From Patescibacteria group bacterium (GTDB lineage: Bacteria > Patescibacteriota > Patescibacteriia > Buchananbacterales > UBA6539), in contig JAVEXP010000001.1 in the NCBI GenBank assembly GCA_034003985.1, forward strand, positions 155,347 to 219,346: a DNA stretch of 64,000 nt. Direction: 5' to 3'. Positions within the stretch are counted from its first letter, which is position 1. Each line of letters starts with the position of its first letter. The notes under the pieces are model-generated. The model was given only the letters and a program-made list of their open reading frames with translations. It was not told where the DNA came from and searched no databases. Of the stretch, positions 51,454-62,331 are shown piece after piece. Made by a program: the position numbers and the translations under genes.

Positions 51454-52317
51454 ATGCCTAGGAGTTTATTAATTACCAAAGCTGATGGTAATAAAGAGGT
51501 TTTTTCGGTTGATAAATTGAAAAAATCAATGTTTCGTTCCGGTGTTAGCGAGCCGGTTATTAACCAAACCATCAGCCAAATAAAGAAAAAGATTAAGCCC
51601 GGGGTCAGTACTTCTCGGATATATCGCTTGGCTTTTAACAATTTGAAATCAGCTAATAAAGTTTACGCCGCCAAATACAGTTTAAAAAAAGCGGTGATGG
51701 ATCTTGGTCCCGACGGTTTTCCATTTGAAAAATATTTCGCCGCCCTATTGAAAGATCAGGGTTATTTGACTTTTACTAATGTGGTTGTTAAAGGCAAGTG
51801 TATTACTCATGAAGTAGATATTATTGCCGAGAAGCCCCAGAAAAATATTCACGCGATTATTGAGGCTAAATTTCATTCTCGCAGCGGCGGTAAAACCGCC
51901 AGCAAGGATGCTTTATATACCCATGCTCGATTTTTGGATATTAAAGAATTTTGGAATCGACAAAAAATTTTAGGCGCTAAACCCAGTACTGGTCAGCTTG
52001 AAAGTTGGTTAGTAACTAATACTAAAATTACGGCGGAAGCTAGACAGTACTGCTTGTGTTCCGGAATCAAAGTCGTAGGTTGGGATTATTCATCAATTGG
52101 TGATAATTTGGAGCAGATGATTCATCACAAGGGATTGTATCCGATAACGGTTTTAACCAGTCTTAATAATGAATCTAAACGCAAACTGCTTGGTCATGGG
52201 GTGGTATTATGTAAGGATCTATTGGATGATAAAAATTCCAAATTATTAAAGCGACTATATTTAAAAAAAGGGCAGTTAAATAGATTACTTGATGAAGTTA
52301 AACTATTACTACGCTGA
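51454..52317 (+). CDS. ATP-cone domain fused to a PD-(D/E)xK (restriction-endonuclease-fold) domain protein.
   Basis: N-terminal ATP-cone-like region (ITKADGNKEVFSVDKLKKSMFRSG). Nuclease-fold motif HEVDIIAE...IIEAKFH (D...E-x-K). Confidence 0.5.
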   Translation: MPRSLLITKADGNKEVFSVDKLKKSMFRSGVSEPVINQTISQIKKKIKPGVSTSRIYRLAFNNLKSANKVYAAKYSLKKAVMDLGPDGFPFEKYFAALLKDQGYLTFTNVVVKGKCITHEVDIIAEKPQKNIHAIIEAKFHSRSGGKTASKDALYTHARFLDIKEFWNRQKILGAKPSTGQLESWLVTNTKITAEARQYCLCSGIKVVGWDYSSIGDNLEQMIHHKGLYPITVLTSLNNESKRKLLGHGVVLCKDLLDDKNSKLLKRLYLKKGQLNRLLDEVKLLLR

Positions 52318-52723
52318 ATCTGCTCAGTATTAAATAAGAGTTATGTGTCGTAAAATATTATAGAAACATTTGGCAGGGCAGGGAAGAGGAGATTGAATGA
52401 TTAAGATAATTGATTGATATAATTTTTTATTTTGATGATATTTGATAGATCTATCAAATATTTTTTTAATTTAATTATCTAGTTGGATGTCCATCATTGT
52501 CCAAAAGAAATTTATTTTTAATATTTTTAGATTGAATATTTAATTCCACGGAATTTTGTTTCTTTTTAGAGCCATTGGAGTAACTTGATTGGCTCTTTGC
52601 TGCTATTTGTGGATAAGTTATTAAATATGTAGTGTCGTATAAGATATATTGTGCGACACTACATATTTAATAAAACAGCCTTAAATAATAATTAAAATTC
52701 ATCCCCTCGCTCAACGGCGAGTT

Positions 52724-52752
52724 GACAACCTGGGTAATAAGATATAAAGTTT
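52724..52752 (+). promoter_or_regulatory. Candidate sigma70-like promoter (TTGACA ... TATAAA or TAAAGT) driving the small-peptide transcript.
   Basis: ttgaca at 52724-52729, with -10 candidates 15-17 nt downstream. Confidence 0.35.
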
Positions 52753-52836
52753 ATTGTCGGGAACATTAAAAATATTTTGTCCTTCCCTATTTGACGGTTA
52801 TTCTTGAAGATTGCCAGCAGATACGGGAGGGCAAAA

Positions 52837-52878
52837 ATGCATATCTTGCAGTTGCCAGGCCTGGTCGACCTGTGCTAA
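52837..52878 (+). CDS. 13-codon upstream ORF (MHILQLPGLVDLC) with a near-perfect Shine-Dalgarno site.
   Basis: GGGAGGG lies 6 nt upstream of the ATG at 52837. The stop TAA is at 52876-52878. Confidence 0.3.
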   Translation: MHILQLPGLVDLC

Positions 52879-52897
52879 ATGCCACTCCTATTAATTC

Positions 52898-53074
52898 ATG
52901 AGCTTTAGGCTTATGTACCACGCAATCAAAACCGGAGTGACATTAGCCGTCGGCTTAGCCGTACTGCAGATGTTCCTCCCTGATGTGGGATCCAAGTTAG
53001 TTGAGTTAATCACTACGGTGATTGACATTATGCTGGTTACCATCAACCAAGCGTCGACTAACTTACCCTCATAG
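52898..53074 (+). CDS. Small hydrophobic peptide (58 aa, two predicted TM segments): MSFRLMYHAIKTGVTLAVGLAVLQMFLPDVGSKLVELITTVIDIMLVTINQASTNLPS.
   Basis: I read the ORF manually; it is under 60 aa. It lies 20 nt after the 13-codon uORF. It is followed by the terminator hairpin ggccctagg...cctgggcc plus a T-rich run at about 53075-53115. Confidence 0.35.
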   Translation: MSFRLMYHAIKTGVTLAVGLAVLQMFLPDVGSKLVELITTVIDIMLVTINQASTNLPS

Positions 53075-53132
53075 ACGACATAAGGCCCTAGGATACTCTC
53101 CTGGGCCTTTTCCTTTGTCTTTGAATATTAGT

Positions 53133-53792
53133 TTAGCTATTTATTTTTCGATAGCTTAAATAAGAGTAGATCATAATCAGTGTTACTCCGCTGATGATTG
53201 AGACAATAAATATCCGCCAATAAATTTGGTTTGGTAAAAACGCTCCTAGAATAGTTATTAACCCCATGGCCACAAATATCTTTCCGCCGAATCGGTGAGT
53301 TTGATTCCAAACCTTTTCATTGGACAATGTCCAAGGAGTTCTGATCCCGATAAACCAATTAGGTTTTATTTTTGATAGGTAATTTCCAATGATCAAAAAT
53401 AGTACCCCGATTGATAACGGTACTACTATATTGATCGGGATTTGATAACCAAGGCCGACTAAGCCAATATAAAAATAGATCAAAGCAAAATAGCCGATTA
53501 TAATAGCCTTAAAAACATGGTAGGTTTTTTGAAATTGTGAATAGCGTTCAGCTTTGGGGTCAATTAAAGGAATAATTAAGAATGTTAAATACGAAACAAT
53601 CATTATCGCCGGGATCATGAAAGCGCCAACCATTTTATTGGAATAACTGTCAATTTCTCCTTGATAATTCCAGTGCATTGGCACTTGTTCTGGAAAATGG
53701 GTATAGAAATAAAAACTACCAACTATAACCAGGATAATTGTTAGCAGCGGGATTAATTCAGTGGTTGGACTGAGGTTGACTGGATTTTTCAT
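53133..53792 (-). CDS. SdpI/YhfL-family (DUF1648) membrane protein, a putative toxin-immunity and signalling protein.
   Basis: 6-TM protein with the conserved extracytoplasmic motif PMHWNYQGEID and the C-terminal arrangement typical of SdpI-like proteins. Its start overlaps the stop of the ArsR-family gene. Confidence 0.7.
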   Translation of the reverse strand: MKNPVNLSPTTELIPLLTIILVIVGSFYFYTHFPEQVPMHWNYQGEIDSYSNKMVGAFMIPAIMIVSYLTFLIIPLIDPKAERYSQFQKTYHVFKAIIIGYFALIYFYIGLVGLGYQIPINIVVPLSIGVLFLIIGNYLSKIKPNWFIGIRTPWTLSNEKVWNQTHRFGGKIFVAMGLITILGAFLPNQIYWRIFIVSIISGVTLIMIYSYLSYRKINS

Positions 53793-54058
53793 ATTTTTTT
53801 ATTGAAAAAATTATATAACTCTTTAGCGACTTCCTCAAAGATGCTTAAATTTAAAGAGTAGATCAGTTGTTGCCCTCGTCGGCGGTAGCTGATTAAACCG
53901 GCATTTTTTAAGATAGTTAGATGATGAGATAATGACGGCAAGGTTATATCGAAGTTTATCGCCATTTCATTAACCGACAGCTCTTTCCTTTTAAGCAAGG
54001 TAAGGATTTTTCTCCTGGTCGGATCGGCTAAAGCGGCGAAAGTTTTGTTTAAGCTCAT
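53789..54058 (-). CDS. ArsR-family transcriptional repressor (SdpR-like).
   Basis: The wHTH signature ALADPTRRKILTLL...SLSHHLTIL...GLI. Start taken at the ATG at 54058, because the track's longer start would run into the palindrome. Confidence 0.8.
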   Translation of the reverse strand: MSLNKTFAALADPTRRKILTLLKRKELSVNEMAINFDITLPSLSHHLTILKNAGLISYRRRGQQLIYSLNLSIFEEVAKELYNFFNKKI

Positions 54059-54095
54059 AGCAATTATCCCTTCCCCTAATGTTTGACAGCTAAGC

Positions 54096-54139
54096 AAGTT
54101 ATTATTTAGATAGTTAGATAACTATCTAAATAATAACTT
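54096..54139. promoter_or_regulatory. Perfect 44-bp palindrome (21-bp arms around a 2-nt centre): AAGTTATTATTTAGATAGTTA-GA-TAACTATCTAAATAATAACTT. A candidate operator for the ArsR/SdpR-like repressor.
   Basis: I checked it base by base: positions i and 45-i are complementary for all 21 pairs. It lies 38 nt upstream of the repressor start codon. Confidence 0.65.
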
Positions 54140-54172
54140 AAAAGAAAGTGGTGGTCAAATTTTTATCCACTG

Positions 54173-54574
54173 CTATAAATCGTTCCAGTAAAGTATTTTT
54201 AGGTAAGTAATGCTTAAAAAAAGGATACAGGCTTGCAAAACATCAGTTAAATTAGGATTTTGGCCAAAGAAGAAAGGCGTGATTATTGTTAAAACCGGGG
54301 CTAGATACATCAATAGATCGTGTTTAATCTGCTGTTTCCAGGTAAGTCGGGCAGAAATGTAGAATTGGTTGTTAGCTTCAAAATGTTTGATTTTTTTTCG
54401 GTCACGGGTATGAACTAAAATACCAAGAGTGATAAAAACTAAAGCTGGAACCAATGACACGATTGTTTCGGTCAGTGATCTTATTTTGTAAAGATAACTA
54501 AAGTAAATATATCCAACTACCACGACGATCGACCAGGTTACTACCAAAGATATTTTTGGGAACTGGCTATTCAT
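54173..54574 (-). CDS. Hypothetical small membrane protein (4 TM).
   Basis: 133 aa ORF with hydrophobic helices. Confidence 0.45.
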   Translation of the reverse strand: MNSQFPKISLVVTWSIVVVVGYIYFSYLYKIRSLTETIVSLVPALVFITLGILVHTRDRKKIKHFEANNQFYISARLTWKQQIKHDLLMYLAPVLTIITPFFFGQNPNLTDVLQACILFLSITYLKILYWNDL

Positions 54575-59162: not shown

Positions 59163-60182
59163 ATGAAAGAAGCAAAACATTATCAAAAGTTGGCAAATAA
59201 TTTAGCGGCTTGTGGACTTTGCAATCATTTTTGCCGGATTGAAAACGGTCGGCGCGGGCTGTGCGGGGTGAGATTGAATTGTGATGGGGTGCTATATACT
59301 TTAGTGTATGATAAAGTCGTGGCGGCCAATATTGATCCGATTGAGAAAAAACCCTTGTATCATTTTTTACCAGGTTCCAAGACATTTTCAATCGCCACGG
59401 TTGGTTGTAATTTTCATTGTGACAACTGTCAGAATGCCGATATTTCCCAGCTACCCAAGGATTCCAATTGGTCGACGAAAGATTTACCCGGTTCTGCTTT
59501 GACACCGGCAGAAATTGTTGAATCAGCTTTGATGTCCGGCTGTCAAAGCATTGCTTATACTTATACCGAACCAACAATTTTTTTTGAGTTGGCCTTGGAT
59601 TGTATGAAATTGGCCAGGTCCAAGGGGCTGAAAAATGTTTGGGTTTCCAACGGGTATACCAGTACGCCAGCTTTAATACAAGCCAGAGATTATCTGGATG
59701 CTGTTAATGTCGATTTAAAATTTTTTAATCGTCAGAGCTATTTAAAAATTGCCGGGGCCAAGCTAGAACCGATTTTGGAAAATTTAAAGTGGTATAAGAC
59801 TAATGGCGTTTGGTTGGAAGTAACAACTCTAATTATCCCCTCCCTCAACGACAATCCGCAGGAGCTAAACAATATCGCCGAATTTATCAGCGGCGAATTA
59901 GGCCAAAATGTCCCTTGGCACATTTCAGTTTTTCATCCGGCTTTCAAATTATTGGATCATCCGGCCACTTCTCGTGATATAATTAATTTAGCTTGGGATA
60001 TTGGCCAGCAAGCCGGGTTGAATTATATTTATGTCGGAAACATTGAAGACCAAAATCGGAGCAACACTTATTGTCCGGGATGTAAAAGTTTGATCGTTCA
60101 GCGTACCGGGTATTTAGTTAAACGGTTTGACGAGGATGGCCAATGTCCAAAATGTCATGCGAAAATTGATTTGATATTATAA
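59163..60182 (+). CDS. AmmeMemoRadiSam-system radical SAM enzyme.
   Basis: N-terminal CxxC...C cluster (CGLCNHFCRI), the radical-SAM CNFHCDNCQN (CxxxCxxC) motif, and a C-terminal CPGC...CPKC. Confidence 0.8.
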   Translation: MKEAKHYQKLANNLAACGLCNHFCRIENGRRGLCGVRLNCDGVLYTLVYDKVVAANIDPIEKKPLYHFLPGSKTFSIATVGCNFHCDNCQNADISQLPKDSNWSTKDLPGSALTPAEIVESALMSGCQSIAYTYTEPTIFFELALDCMKLARSKGLKNVWVSNGYTSTPALIQARDYLDAVNVDLKFFNRQSYLKIAGAKLEPILENLKWYKTNGVWLEVTTLIIPSLNDNPQELNNIAEFISGELGQNVPWHISVFHPAFKLLDHPATSRDIINLAWDIGQQAGLNYIYVGNIEDQNRSNTYCPGCKSLIVQRTGYLVKRFDEDGQCPKCHAKIDLIL

Positions 60183-61520
60183 ATGAAAAAAATATTATAC
60201 CTGATTTTATTTTCTAGCTTGTTGGCCTTGCCCAATTACGCGCGGGCCGATTATTATTTTAATCCTCATTTTGTTATTACTGACGAAGAGATGACGGATT
60301 ATTTGTCCTTGTCATTGGCGCAAATCCAGCGGTTTTTGGAAGACAAAGGAAGTTATTTGGCCGAGTGGTCGGCGCCGGATTACAATGGCGTTACCAGGCC
60401 GGCGGCCGAAATCATTTGGCAGGCCGCCCAGGAGAGCCAAATTAGCCCCAAAGTACTCTTGACGACTTTGCAAAAAGAGCAAAGTTTAATCGGTGATAAA
60501 TCTCCCAGCCAAAATCAATTGGATAAAGCCATGGGCTACCGTTGCCCTGATGGCGGCTCTTGCAATGTTAAGTCTTTGGGATTTGGCAAGCAGGTTGACG
60601 GCGCGGCTTGGCAATTTCGTCAGTATTATAATACGCCAAATACCTGGACTTATCGGATTGGTGAAACCTATATCATCGACGGTTATTGGACGATGCCGGT
60701 TAATCAGGCAACGGCCAGTTTGTATAATTATACTCCTCATTATTCGGGCAATAAAAGATTTTGGGAATTGTGGCAAAAGTATTGGGGTAAAAATTATCCC
60801 GATGGGACATTGCTTAAAGCTGATGACAATCCTGGAGTTTGGTTGATTCAATACGGCACCAGAAGATTAATTAAATCTTGGGGAGTTTTGCTGTCACGAT
60901 TTGACCCTCGTAAAATTATCACCGTCAATAAGACTGATTTGGAAAAGTATGCGGTCGGTCCTGATATCAAGTTTCATAATTATTCATTATTGCGAGTTGA
61001 TAAAAATGATATCTATCTGTTGGTTAATGATGAGTTGCGCCAGATTGTGTCTTTGGATATTTTTAGGAATATCGGTTTTAATCCCGAGGAAATTGAAGAT
61101 GTTGCTTCGGCTGATTTAGCTGGTTATCAGTATGGCGCGGATATTACGGCTCAAACAGCTTATCCAACCGGAGCCTTATTGCAAGATCAAAATACTGGCG
61201 GCGTTTATTTTGTGGAAAACGGTGTCAAATATCCGATCTATTCCAAGGAAATTATGGCTGCTAATTTTCCTGATCGGGTATTGACTGCTGTTGCTCCAGA
61301 GGTGTTAGAAGGCTACCAAACTGGCGTGCCAGTAAAATTCAAGGATGGCGAATTAGTGATGGCCGATGGTGATTCAAAAGTTTTCGTAATTTCCGGCGGT
61401 TACCGTCGCTGGATTAAAACCCAGGCCGGATTTGAAAAATTAGGCTATAAGTGGGATAATATAATTGTGACTTCGGCCAAAGCAATAGCCATTCATTCCT
61501 TGGGCGAAGATATTGACTAA
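60183..61520 (+). CDS. Secreted hypothetical protein with four tandem repeats of about 55 aa.
   Basis: Signal peptide. Repeats centred on VWLIQYGTRRLIKS, IYLLVNDELRQIVS, VYFVENGVKYPIYS and VFVISGGYRRWIKT. Confidence 0.45.
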   Translation: MKKILYLILFSSLLALPNYARADYYFNPHFVITDEEMTDYLSLSLAQIQRFLEDKGSYLAEWSAPDYNGVTRPAAEIIWQAAQESQISPKVLLTTLQKEQSLIGDKSPSQNQLDKAMGYRCPDGGSCNVKSLGFGKQVDGAAWQFRQYYNTPNTWTYRIGETYIIDGYWTMPVNQATASLYNYTPHYSGNKRFWELWQKYWGKNYPDGTLLKADDNPGVWLIQYGTRRLIKSWGVLLSRFDPRKIITVNKTDLEKYAVGPDIKFHNYSLLRVDKNDIYLLVNDELRQIVSLDIFRNIGFNPEEIEDVASADLAGYQYGADITAQTAYPTGALLQDQNTGGVYFVENGVKYPIYSKEIMAANFPDRVLTAVAPEVLEGYQTGVPVKFKDGELVMADGDSKVFVISGGYRRWIKTQAGFEKLGYKWDNIIVTSAKAIAIHSLGEDID

Positions 61521-62331
61521 AATTGGGCCAAATATGCCAATTGTTTTTTCAGCGATTACGCCGCATCCGCCGATTTTGATTCCCGAAATCGGCAAAGACA
61601 ATTTAGAAAAGATCAAAAAAACTCAGGAAGCAATGAAAACTTTGGAGCAGAATCTTTATGTTGCCAAGCCCGAAAGTATTGTGATCATTTCGCCTCATGG
61701 TCAGGTTTTTGATGATTCTTTTGCCATCAATCTGAATGCCGACTACGCCGCTAATTTTAAGGAGTTTGGCGATTTTAGTTTGGAGCTTAAATTCAAAAGC
61801 GATTATATGTCAATTCAGGAAATCAGAGCAGCTGATGAGAGCCATAAAGAAGCGCCCATTGTTTTAACCAGCGAGCAAGAGATTGATTATGCTTTCTCCG
61901 TACCGCTTTATTATTTAACCCAGCATTTGAAAAATATTCCCATCATTCCCATTACTTATTCGACTTTGGACAATCAGCAGCATTTTGAGTTCGGTCAGTT
62001 TTTGTACCGTCAGCTGGCTAAGATTAATAAGCGGTTTGCAGTGATTGCCTCGGCTGATTTATCACATAAACTTACTCAAGATGCGCCTGGCGGATACTCT
62101 CCTCAGGCTCAAGAATTTGATGAGCAGGTTGTAACTTTGGTAAAGCAAAAAAAATTCGCCGAGTTTTTGAAAATTGATCCGAATTTGGTTGCTCAAGCCG
62201 GTGAAACCGACTTGCGGGCGCTGATTGTTTTAGCCGGGCTGCTTCAGGCTTTGAATGTCAAATCGGAAGTGCTATCTTACGAAGGGCCTTTTGGGGTTGG
62301 CTATCTGGTGGCCAGCTTTCAAATGGTTTAA
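61513..62331 (+). CDS. LigB-fold (class III extradiol dioxygenase / Memo-like) protein, a candidate AmmeMemoRadiSam system protein B.
   Basis: ISPHGQVF and SADLSHKL His-containing motifs are typical of the LigB/Memo fold. It lies 1.3 kb from the system's radical SAM gene. Confidence 0.5.
   Translation: MTKIGPNMPIVFSAITPHPPILIPEIGKDNLEKIKKTQEAMKTLEQNLYVAKPESIVIISPHGQVFDDSFAINLNADYAANFKEFGDFSLELKFKSDYMSIQEIRAADESHKEAPIVLTSEQEIDYAFSVPLYYLTQHLKNIPIIPITYSTLDNQQHFEFGQFLYRQLAKINKRFAVIASADLSHKLTQDAPGGYSPQAQEFDEQVVTLVKQKKFAEFLKIDPNLVAQAGETDLRALIVLAGLLQALNVKSEVLSYEGPFGVGYLVASFQMV

Follow-up and report, generated by a model that had tools for sequence, protein, structure and literature searches.

A probable autoregulated sdpR-sdpI operon with a predicted palindromic operator in a Patescibacteria genome

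Background

The closest described counterpart of the locus analysed here is the sdpR-sdpI pair of Bacillus subtilis (Ellermeier et al 2006, as summarised in PMC2910880), in which an ArsR-type autorepressor of approximately 90 aa is encoded directly upstream of a six-TM protein of approximately 210 aa that combines a DUF1648 with an SdpI domain. A survey of the SdpI family (Povolotsky et al 2010, PMC2910880) already described the operon pairing of SdpI with SdpR, and reported that SdpI homologues frequently form the second gene of a two-gene operon, after a transcription factor and without toxin genes. Some of these orphan pairs, which occur in bacteria and archaea, use PadR or GntR regulators (PMC2910880), as opposed to the canonical SdpR and TTAGATA box of the present locus. 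SdpI is the only characterised member of its family (PMC11995493), and a literature search for SdpI in Patescibacteria found nothing. The repressor can also be compared with SmtB, CzrA and CadC, members of the same winged-helix dimer family that bind inverted-repeat operators (12-2-12 type sites) over their own promoters.

The window studied here is a 64,000-nucleotide stretch of DNA from a small-genome Patescibacteria MAG, a host very different from the sporulating Bacillus of the B. subtilis system. The sdpR-sdpI pair that it contains is an ordinary, already annotated member of a widespread two-gene module: the NCBI name of the exact membrane protein is 'SdpI family protein' and that of the repressor 'autorepressor SdpR family transcription factor'. 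Given these names and the pairing described in 2010, the module cannot be called undescribed, as the original prediction had suggested; its further proposal of a new toxin-immunity module also fails, and the locus itself, as a routine named pair, matters little. By comparison with related sequences, it is probably a self-contained, negatively autoregulated operon of the B. subtilis kind, acting as an orphan sensor/immunity cassette. What the comparison does yield is an operator and promoter architecture of the SdpR family that is precise enough to test.

The sdpR-sdpI gene pair

The features of the gene pair are as follows.
53133..53792, minus strand: sdpI-like gene; 219 aa, six TM segments, Pfam matches above the gathering cut-offs (DUF1648 at residues 18-65, SdpI domain at residues 141-210)
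53789..54058, minus strand: sdpR-like gene; 89-aa ArsR/SmtB-type winged-helix repressor
54068..54076, minus strand: Shine-Dalgarno sequence GGGGAAGGG of sdpR, 9 nt 5' of the ATG, read from the sequence

The predicted coupling of an ArsR-family repressor to a six-TM SdpI-family protein is borne out by both the gene structure and the family models. The sdpR-like ORF starts with the ATG at 54058 and its TGA stop ends at 53789, overlapping the ATG of sdpI in the sequence ATGA; sdpI has no Shine-Dalgarno sequence of its own and would be translated by coupling to sdpR. Sites equivalent to the sdpR Shine-Dalgarno, of the form GGGG(A)A, lie 5' of sdpR in the related loci L003-L005. A longer sdpR beginning at a TTG (54097) was rejected, as this codon is inside the palindrome described below and the N-termini of homologues give it no support.

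The Pfam search that had been proposed finds both expected domains in the membrane protein, DUF1648 (PF07853; 59.9 bits, cut-off 28.7) followed by SdpI (PF13630; 75.9 bits, cut-off 28.2), which is the domain order of the SdpI family, and HTH_5 in the repressor (51.7 bits, cut-off 22). The six hydrophobic segments are arranged as in the family, with motif 1 between TMS1 and 2 and motif 2 between TMS4 and 5, and the PMHWNYQGEID motif noted at the outset occupies residues 38-48. As in B. subtilis, the protein has the conserved HW..G motif on the external side and GIRTPWT in a loop: residues H40, W41, G45, N145, G149, T152, P153, W154 and T155 are invariant in alignment A1 and show conservation of at least 89% across 73 homologues. 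The protein is approximately 40% identical to homologues from the Bacillaceae (Bacillus, Priestia, Geobacillus), a set that does not include B. subtilis SdpI itself. The repressor's best-scoring NCBIfam model is that of the SdpR subfamily (NF033789 repress_SdpR), which it passes, as does the B. subtilis protein, here by a narrow 2 bits (102.3 bits, cut-off 100), and its gene has the position characteristic of the subfamily, immediately upstream of sdpI and in one operon with it. The recognition helix, PS[LI]SHHL, is conserved in relatives.

The association between the two genes was studied in 80 related loci from several phyla, of which the 48 linked to SdpR were used for the operator counts below. 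By tblastn, 56 of the 80 have an sdpR homologue directly upstream of sdpI in the same orientation, and sdpI has no other recurrent neighbour; no third gene recurs beside the pair in this set. SdpI relatives are encoded in at least 596 stretches of the species-genome collection.

In one alternative, the repressor would respond to a ligand as conventional ArsR/SmtB proteins do, a small molecule or ion releasing it from DNA, and the membrane protein would act in transport or resistance and sequester nothing. This is considered unlikely, although the repressor does have a bona fide ArsR/SmtB fold, matches a metalloregulator model (NF033788, 87.7 bits) and has metal sensors (SrnR, SmtB, CzrA) as its nearest solved structures, while the SdpI family offers a single characterised member for comparison. 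Furthermore, an adjacent SdpR makes no difference to how well the core SdpI motifs are conserved, which implies a role for them beyond SdpR binding. However, the usual metal site of the ArsR/SmtB family, a CXC motif in alpha-3, is missing, because the repressor has no cysteine and its only two histidines are both in the recognition helix; no obvious alpha-5 His/Asp/Glu site could be seen either, judging by eye from residue counts. In these respects it differs from SmtB, CzrA and CadC. The better score with the SdpR subfamily model, above its cut-off, also argues against this alternative. A PDB sequence search with SdpI gave no meaningful relative, including among solved transporters, and hence no structural inference was drawn for it. 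Finally, the strict co-inheritance of sdpR and sdpI across phyla fits a protein-protein partnership. Two SdpI residues present in the window protein, N137 and R167, are approximately 98% conserved in SdpR-linked homologues as against 21% and 50% respectively in unlinked ones, a signal confounded by phylogeny since many of the loci lacking SdpR are archaeal.

Under the favoured reading of an autoregulated operon, a sigma-70-type promoter would drive both genes, the first of which would encode the repressor, an ArsR/SmtB-type member of the SdpR subfamily that lacks cysteine and would act as a dimer. On the model of B. subtilis, the six-TM SdpI may sense an extracellular or membrane-borne cue and then hold SdpR at the membrane, so that the operon is derepressed and more protective SdpI is made. 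The inducer would thus be the partner membrane protein, not a metal ion as for SmtB, CzrA and CadC. This inactivation of SdpR by membrane sequestration, as well as a dual role of SdpI in toxin immunity and signal transduction, would be carried over from B. subtilis SdpI, the only protein for which that role is known. The cassette is most likely directed against a toxin from other cells, and not against the peptide encoded next to the operon.

The adjacent small ORF and its RNA leader

The neighbouring unit, convergent with sdpRI, comprises the following features.
52722-52750, plus strand: promoter-like sequence TTGACA-17-TAAAGT of the pep53 leader
52779..52912, plus strand: structured RNA leader of pep53; conserved, supported by covariation
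52913..53074, plus strand: small ORF pep53; 53 aa, one N-terminal TM-like segment, the protein conserved in relatives
53087..53105, plus strand: terminator-like hairpin and T-run between pep53 and sdpI

The small hydrophobic convergent ORF of the original prediction is present, but not with the 58 aa ascribed to it: that is the length of the longer version (52898-53074), whereas the start used in homologues and public gene calls is the ATG at 52913, giving 53 aa. The hairpin at 53087..53105 belongs to the pep53 unit and has no U-tract after it on the minus strand.

It is very improbable that pep53 is the toxin or ligand of a new three-part module with SdpR and SdpI as its dedicated sensor and immunity proteins. 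The arrangement does recall B. subtilis, where the sdpABC and sdpRI units are likewise adjacent and convergent (PMC2910880). pep53 encodes a small hydrophobic peptide that has a single TM-like segment, adjacency to sdpRI is also seen in L005 and L088 and near-adjacency in L003, L090 and L004, and an elaborate structured leader without a Shine-Dalgarno sequence suggests tightly limited translation. Nevertheless, the linkage that had been proposed breaks down in both directions. In L084 (in the order pep-mem133-M23), L086 (pep-IS200 transposase-M23) and L085, pep53 keeps its syntenic position (ftsQ / xer-or-Mrr / pep / ... / M23 / gltX) with no sdpRI there; conversely, sdpRI is found without pep53 in L004 and approximately 75 more distant loci.

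The two are also of very different abundance. Against the hundreds of stretches that encode SdpI relatives, the pep53 family has 10 matches at E ≤ 0.001 among 1.84 billion representatives, about nine of them approximately 53 aa long; a word-indexed protein search found three near-identical proteins, to which a full HMMER scan added approximately eight clusters. Further against the three-part reading, the peptide matches nothing in Pfam or NCBIfam and lacks the architecture of SdpC, whose precursor is a 203-aa protein with a signal peptide and subsequent processing. A three-part SdpC-SdpI-SdpR system requires both a linked sdpABC-like toxin operon and the co-inheritance of toxin with immunity, and pep53 and sdpRI show neither. 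Unlike in B. subtilis, the pair has no linked sdpABC or other toxin gene: maturation genes of the SdpA/SdpB type are absent near pep53, and no SdpA/B/C-like or bacteriocin-like genes were recognised within approximately 10 kb (B. subtilis SdpA/B/C not being among the queries), where the genes are of the housekeeping kind, namely ddl, ftsQ, an M23 peptidase, gltX, wecG and aminoacyl-tRNA synthetases. Nor did the window scan find an SdpR box at the pep53 promoter. Judged by sequence and synteny, pep53 belongs to a narrow family of Buchananbacteria type whose place is fixed by local gene order, and is not part of the sdpRI module.

In several respects pep53 resembles the mRNAs of type I toxins (hok, tisB, aapA), with a hydrophobic product of fewer than 60 aa, an extended, structured 5' leader and possibly a hairpin that buries the start codon. 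It differs from such loci in that no antisense RNA was identified, and from the mobile ones in being single-copy and syntenically fixed beside cell-division genes in several genera. A variant that can be given very little credence is that pep53 is a self-made membrane-active factor, translation of which is silenced by the leader, and that some strains gained sdpRI, with its own promoter and operator, next to it to serve for inducible sensing and immunity. If true, pep53 and sdpRI would be the two units of a minimal 'cannibalism' system in an ultra-small episymbiont, and strains with pep53 but no neighbouring sdpRI would have the cassette elsewhere or other protection.

The leader itself consists of a long hairpin (P1/P2), a variable P3, a P4 with a UAGUC loop, a CCACUCCU box and a weak hairpin that may occlude the AUG. 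An Rfam search of the whole window at gathering thresholds gave no relevant match, and relaxing this to E ≤ 1 to 5 for the small-ORF region and five related contigs produced only microRNA-like noise on an AT-rich hairpin. A reading of the element as encoding a leader peptide, from an ATG after GGGAGGG, was rejected because neither start nor frame is conserved in the A4/A6 rows. The pep53 leader, for which Rfam has no family, would repay follow-up more than the sdpRI pair.

The promoter and the palindromic operator

Upstream of sdpR lie the following features.
54096..54139, no strand: 44-bp palindrome with 21-nt arms and a 2-nt asymmetric centre; predicted extended SdpR-family operator
54106..54129, minus strand: predicted operator core, TTAGATA-GT-TATCTAA-C-TATCTAA in gene orientation
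54129-54123, 54120-54114 and 54112-54106, minus strand: operator half-sites, the conserved core
54130..54158, minus strand: sigma-70-type promoter TTGACC-17 nt-TATTAT, from a promoter scan

The palindrome had been described as perfect over 44 bp and 38 nt from the repressor start. Its 21-nt arms (54096-54116 and 54119-54139) are indeed 100% complementary; the central GA is not self-complementary, however, so the symmetry is 42/44, and the gap to the ATG measures 37 nt (54059-54095). Of 100 shuffles, 0 gave any arm match. Within it, the exact 7-2-7 box occupies 54114-54129 and the -10 hexamer (54135-54130) directly abuts the first half-site. As this hexamer is inside the palindrome, the sdpR transcript would start there too. 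The window scan found no further exact operator sites. An operator-like 15-mer inside sdpR (53909-53923, two mismatches) was rejected as an auxiliary site, since approximately 0.2 such matches are expected by chance and the DNA is not conserved in relatives.

No description of an SdpR operator was found in the searchable literature; the 'SdpR' reported from Nocardia is an unlinked ArsR protein. Comparison of the related loci, which do not include the B. subtilis sdpR promoter, reveals a shared architecture upstream of sdpR, TTGACA-N17-TAATAT followed by TTAGATA-NN-TATCTAA-N-TATCTAA. With up to two mismatches, the box is found upstream of sdpR in 37 of the 48 SdpR-linked loci, the other 11 having no recognisable box. 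TTAGATA-N2/N10-TATCTAA with at most one mismatch occurs within -150 to +60 of sdpR in 36 of the 48, whereas the flanking DNA, 279 kb of background in all, has two site starts, and when all 13 half-site gaps from 0 to 12 were tested, only 2 and 10 were observed. Three half-sites are present in 27-31 of the 37 box-bearing loci, and many loci carry the short 7-2-7 box only. A -10-like hexamer ends 0-2 nt 5' of the box in 24 of the 37, in 22 cases with a -35.

In the half-sites it is the sequence that is conserved, without covariation, which is what protein-DNA recognition would lead one to expect. The palindrome is very probably the repressor's operator, as originally proposed, on the evidence of a core conserved in sequence, spacing and position right after the -10 across several phyla. 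The prediction that the repressor acts on its own promoter has strong comparative support from the abutting box and -10, the layout expected of an autorepressor. The likely operator, a 7-2-7 inverted repeat with a third half-site one base on, starts right after the -10 and spans the transcription start, so that the repressor, once bound, should keep RNA polymerase off. By the same comparison, the palindrome is a lineage-specific extension of the conserved promoter and operator, its symmetric flanks lengthening the site to 44 bp in this genome.

The possibility that it is instead an RNA hairpin, terminating or stabilising the mem133/M23 transcript, or a generic repeat can be practically dismissed, for although its minus-strand RNA folds into a 21-bp hairpin (z-score -4.45) and no separate terminator was found 3' of mem133, this hairpin has no following U-tract, relatives, many of them with the short box only, preserve half-site sequence and not pairing potential, the -10 hexamer within the palindrome would place the start of the sdpR transcript inside it, and no second copy of the arm exists in the 64 kb, even allowing three mismatches, as a dispersed repeat would have. 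Read-through from the upstream mem133 gene, which has no detected terminator before the sdpR promoter, may also contribute to sdpRI expression.

The predicted operator shares with ArsR/SmtB sites its AT-rich inverted repeat and 2-nt centre. Its extended half-sites, ATATTTAGATA-NN-TATCTAAATAT, are roughly of an 11-2-11 form overlapping the -10/+1 region, and the predicted autorepression follows the ArsR/SmtB pattern. The conserved third, directly repeated half-site distinguishes the SdpR-type operator from those of SmtB, CzrA and CadC. GC composition points to no recent acquisition, and a junction alignment against the sdpRI-less relative L084 has no clean insertion scars. The same promoter and operator architecture is common to Bacillota, Patescibacteria and proteobacterial MAGs, which suggests that the sdpRI pair travels as a complete plug-in cassette.

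The sdpR-sdpI pair is a two-gene module

The locus is a standard, already annotated member of the SdpR/SdpI family. The exact repressor sequence is named 'autorepressor SdpR family transcription factor' by NCBI (MDX9892982.1) and that of the membrane protein 'SdpI family protein', and the module can thus not be called undescribed, as the original prediction had it. Its assignment of both proteins was borne out by profile searches, in which all models scored above their cut-offs. In the 219-aa membrane protein, which has six hydrophobic segments, DUF1648 matches residues 18-65 (59.9 bits, cut-off 28.7) and SdpI residues 141-210 (75.9 bits, cut-off 28.2), and the predicted motif PMHWNYQGEID is found at residues 38-48. 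The 89-aa repressor matches Pfam HTH_5 (ArsR; 51.7 bits, cut-off 22) and, narrowly, the SdpR subfamily model NCBIfam NF033789 (102.3 bits, cut-off 100). Its closest solved relatives are SrnR, SmtB and CzrA; SdpI has no relative among solved structures. Classical ArsR sensors carry a CXC-type metal site; the repressor contains no cysteine and therefore no such site, and its sole histidines are the two in the conserved recognition helix PSLSHHL.

The genes are arranged as follows in the window, which comes from a Patescibacteria MAG.

54173-54574, minus: mem133, 133-aa four-TM hypothetical protein, 5' of sdpR, between sdpR and an M23 peptidase gene
54068-54076, minus: strong ribosome-binding site of sdpR, GGGGAAGGG, 9 nt from the ATG
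54058 (ATG) to 53789 (stop), minus: sdpR, 89-aa ORF
53792..53133, minus: sdpI, 219-aa ORF

The start of sdpR was placed at 54058 because the TTG at 54097, which would give a longer ORF, sits within the upstream palindrome and because homologues begin at the MSLNK-equivalent position. The TGA stop of sdpR and the ATG of sdpI share an ATGA overlap and sdpI has no Shine-Dalgarno sequence of its own, an arrangement consistent with translational coupling. Further upstream of mem133 lie the M23/PcsB-like peptidase gene and gltX, and past the convergent junction a small ORF (52898/52913-53074, plus), an ATP-cone/Mrr-like gene, ftsQ and ddl. NCBI lists the products of both the small ORF and mem133 as 'hypothetical'. 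No family could be assigned to mem133, which is kept with the M23 gene regardless of the presence of sdpRI (absent from L084, a related locus of another genome). In L004, another such locus, mem133 occurs in two copies.

A word-indexed search with the membrane protein recovered 1,609 relatives, of which the best 120 have at least 48% identity; every one of these with a named source is from Patescibacteria-type bacteria. Scanning genomes, one for each species, gave at least 596 stretches encoding such relatives, in bacteria and archaea, and the best 80 formed the comparison set. By tblastn, an SdpR homologue lies directly 5' on the same strand in 56 of these 80 loci, in many of them overlapping sdpI or within a few bases of it. 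When every adjoining ORF was clustered, SdpR was the sole recurrent neighbour (48/80), the next commonest clusters being found in at most 8 loci each; hence the module comprises just two genes. In line with this, SdpI homologues have been reported to lie often in operons behind SdpR homologues (Povolotsky et al. 2010, PMC2910880).

A conserved probable operator at sdpR promoters

54158..54130, minus: promoter-like TTGACC-17-TATTAT
54135-54130, minus: its -10 hexamer (gene orientation), within the palindrome
54119-54139 and 54096-54116: palindrome arms, 21 nt each
54129-54123, 54120-54114 and 54112-54106, minus: three operator half-sites (gene orientation)

The repeat search confirmed that the palindrome arms, separated by 2 nt, are 100% complementary. 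The central GA is not self-complementary, so that only 42 positions of the predicted perfect 44-bp palindrome are symmetric; it lies just upstream of the repressor, ending 37 rather than 38 nt from the sdpR ATG. It owes its length to the mutual inversion of the two outer half-sites and to their flanks, AAGTTATTAT and ATAATAACTT, which are also symmetric in this genome; in relatives these extensions are shorter or imperfect. As for a generic repeat, the arm sequence has no second copy in the 64 kb even at three mismatches, nor a match in any shuffle, and the only exact half-site boxes are those at the sdpR promoter.

The reading of the palindrome as a putative SdpR operator is well supported by comparison, since core, spacing and -10 juxtaposition all recur upstream of sdpR homologues. 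In locus after locus the best inverted repeat 5' of sdpR has the common core ATTTAGATA...TATCTAAAT, seen in Buchananbacteria, Falkowbacteria, other Patescibacteria, Bacillus, Priestia, Aneurinibacillus and proteobacterial MAGs. With up to one mismatch allowed, 36 of 48 loci have TTAGATA-N(0-12)-TATCTAA between -150 and +60 relative to the start of the sdpR ORF, against only 2 site starts in the remaining 279 kb of locus DNA. Only spacings of 2 and 10 occur among the 13 tested, the spacing-10 class being a 7-2-7 box followed one base on by a third half-site. The box-anchored consensus is TTGaca-N17-taaTAT, directly adjoined by TTAGATA-nT-TaTCTAA-A-TATCTAA. Allowing two mismatches, 37 of 48 loci have the box, and 27 of these 37 also have the third half-site with at most one mismatch (31 with at most two). 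In 24 of the 37, the box follows the end of a -10-like hexamer by 0-2 nt, and in 22 of these 24 a -35 is found at 16-18 nt. The searchable literature yielded no account of this box. A by-product of modest value is an operator and promoter consensus for the family as a whole.

On this sequence evidence, the SdpR-type protein would repress its own promoter through the overlapping site, with SdpI probably expressed in coupling with it. By analogy with B. subtilis alone, a signal might then lead SdpI to capture SdpR, causing derepression. SdpI residues N137 and R167, which flank the conserved GIRTPWT loop, are about 98% conserved with an adjacent sdpR and 21% and 50% without one, in a comparison confounded by phylogeny; the core SdpI motifs are conserved to the same degree with and without sdpR. 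Within that confounding, the pattern is compatible with a physical SdpR-SdpI partnership and makes the two residues candidate SdpR contacts. The main rival, a conventional ligand-released ArsR protein controlling a membrane resistance protein, is considered unlikely.

The palindrome region would fold as RNA, yet an RNA hairpin is argued against by the conservation in relatives of the sequence itself, beyond mere pairing potential, and by the lack of a following U-tract; protein-DNA recognition is favoured on both grounds.

Within sdpR, the recognition-helix codons (HHLTILK) at 53909-53923 (minus), CATCTAACTATCTTA, match the operator double half-site at 13 of 15 positions. This is probably coincidence: relatives do not share it at the DNA level, and chance alone would give about 0.2 such matches.

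The small ORF pep53 is a separate unit

52913-53074, plus: pep53, conserved 53-aa gene, 43-87% identity in relatives

The convergent peptide unit is a real conserved gene, though not of the predicted 58 aa: homologues begin at the second ATG (52913), giving 53 aa. The family is narrow, with three clusters in a word search and 10 matches at E≤0.001 among 1.84 billion representatives, about nine of them proteins of around 53 aa, and there is no Pfam or NCBIfam match. Its position is syntenic: ftsQ / (xer recombinase or ATP-cone-Mrr) / pep53 / ... / (mem133) / M23 / gltX.

Content between pep53 and the M23 gene
Window, L005/L088: sdpI-sdpR
L003: roughly 1 kb of other sequence followed by sdpI-sdpR
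L090: pyrophosphatase fragment, then sdpI-sdpR
L084: mem133 only, sdpRI absent
L086: IS200-type transposase, sdpRI absent
L085: unrelated 204-aa convergent gene, no sdpI; short contig ends before M23

Conversely, L004 has sdpRI and lacks pep53, which is in none of about 75 more distant sdpI loci. As each regularly occurs without the other, they do not form a toxin-immunity module. No SdpR box lies near the pep53 promoter, and no SdpA/B/C-like or bacteriocin-type genes were found within about 10 kb. The proposed toxin link between pep53 and SdpRI is therefore not supported.

A structured RNA leader precedes pep53

Between pep53 and a promoter-like site identified by promoter scan lies a conserved element, about 135 nt long.

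52722-52750, plus: pep53 promoter-like site
Part 1: long hairpin UUGUCCUUCCC...GGGAGGGCAA with inner helix
Part 2: variable hairpin
Part 3: hairpin with invariant UAGUC loop core
Part 4: CCACUCCU box
Part 5: weaker hairpin burying the pep53 AUG, CAUGAGCU/GGCUUAUG

Leader coordinates
Window: 52722-52912 (plus)
L084: 1825-1960
L085: 181-336
L086: 2140-2297
L087: 988-1138
L088: 3858-4006
L089: 489-643
L090: 328-475
L003: 5007-4831 (minus)
L004: 5055-4912 (minus)

A covariance model trained on nine sequences also recovered the L004 leader from outside the training set (64 bits), where it precedes a different ORF of 41 aa. In the model-based alignment 94.5% of cells are paired, against 33-53% with slid partners, and double compensatory changes are seen at 15 of the 24 pairs, compared with 3-7 after sliding; neither value was matched in 500 shuffles. 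The AUG-occluding helix is only 76% paired, with little covariation; the pep53 start codon may be buried in this predicted hairpin, which is weakly supported across relatives. In most genomes pep53 lacks a Shine-Dalgarno sequence; the sdpR genes there have strong ones. The leader, which matches no Rfam family, could act in translational control or in the manner of a riboswitch, and constitutes a second by-product of modest value, an unclassified structured RNA adjoining sdpRI.

Other features of the neighbourhood

Two further features lie in a very AT-rich, gene-free stretch of 580 bp that separates the ATP-cone/Mrr gene from the promoter of the small ORF.

52441-52458: perfect 18-bp palindrome, TTTGATAGATCTATCAAA
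52616-52677: long hairpin, 20-nt arms (TTATTAAATATGTAGTGTCG ... CGACACTACATATTTAATAA), 16-nt loop

The palindrome is similar to the SdpR half-site, yet distinct and differently spaced. The hairpin gave the only Rfam matches, which were spurious and microRNA-like; a terminator is one possible role for it, a further protein-binding site another.

Gene content varies between close relatives in the pep53-to-M23 interval (window 52318-53132, compared with L003, L004, L084, L086 and L090), a hotspot occupied by sdpRI, a mem133 duplication, an IS200-type transposase, a pyrophosphatase fragment or inserts of high GC content. In several relatives it is adjoined by a xer-type recombinase gene, which takes the place of the ATP-cone/Mrr gene (51454-52317, plus). 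The ATP-cone/Mrr protein combines, unusually, an ATP-cone with the core of an Mrr-type restriction endonuclease and a C-terminal domain resembling AF1548. At 59163-62331 (plus), a radical-SAM protein, a 445-aa protein with no Pfam match and a LigB/Memo-like protein are encoded in series, an arrangement that resembles an AmmeMemoRadiSam-type cluster.
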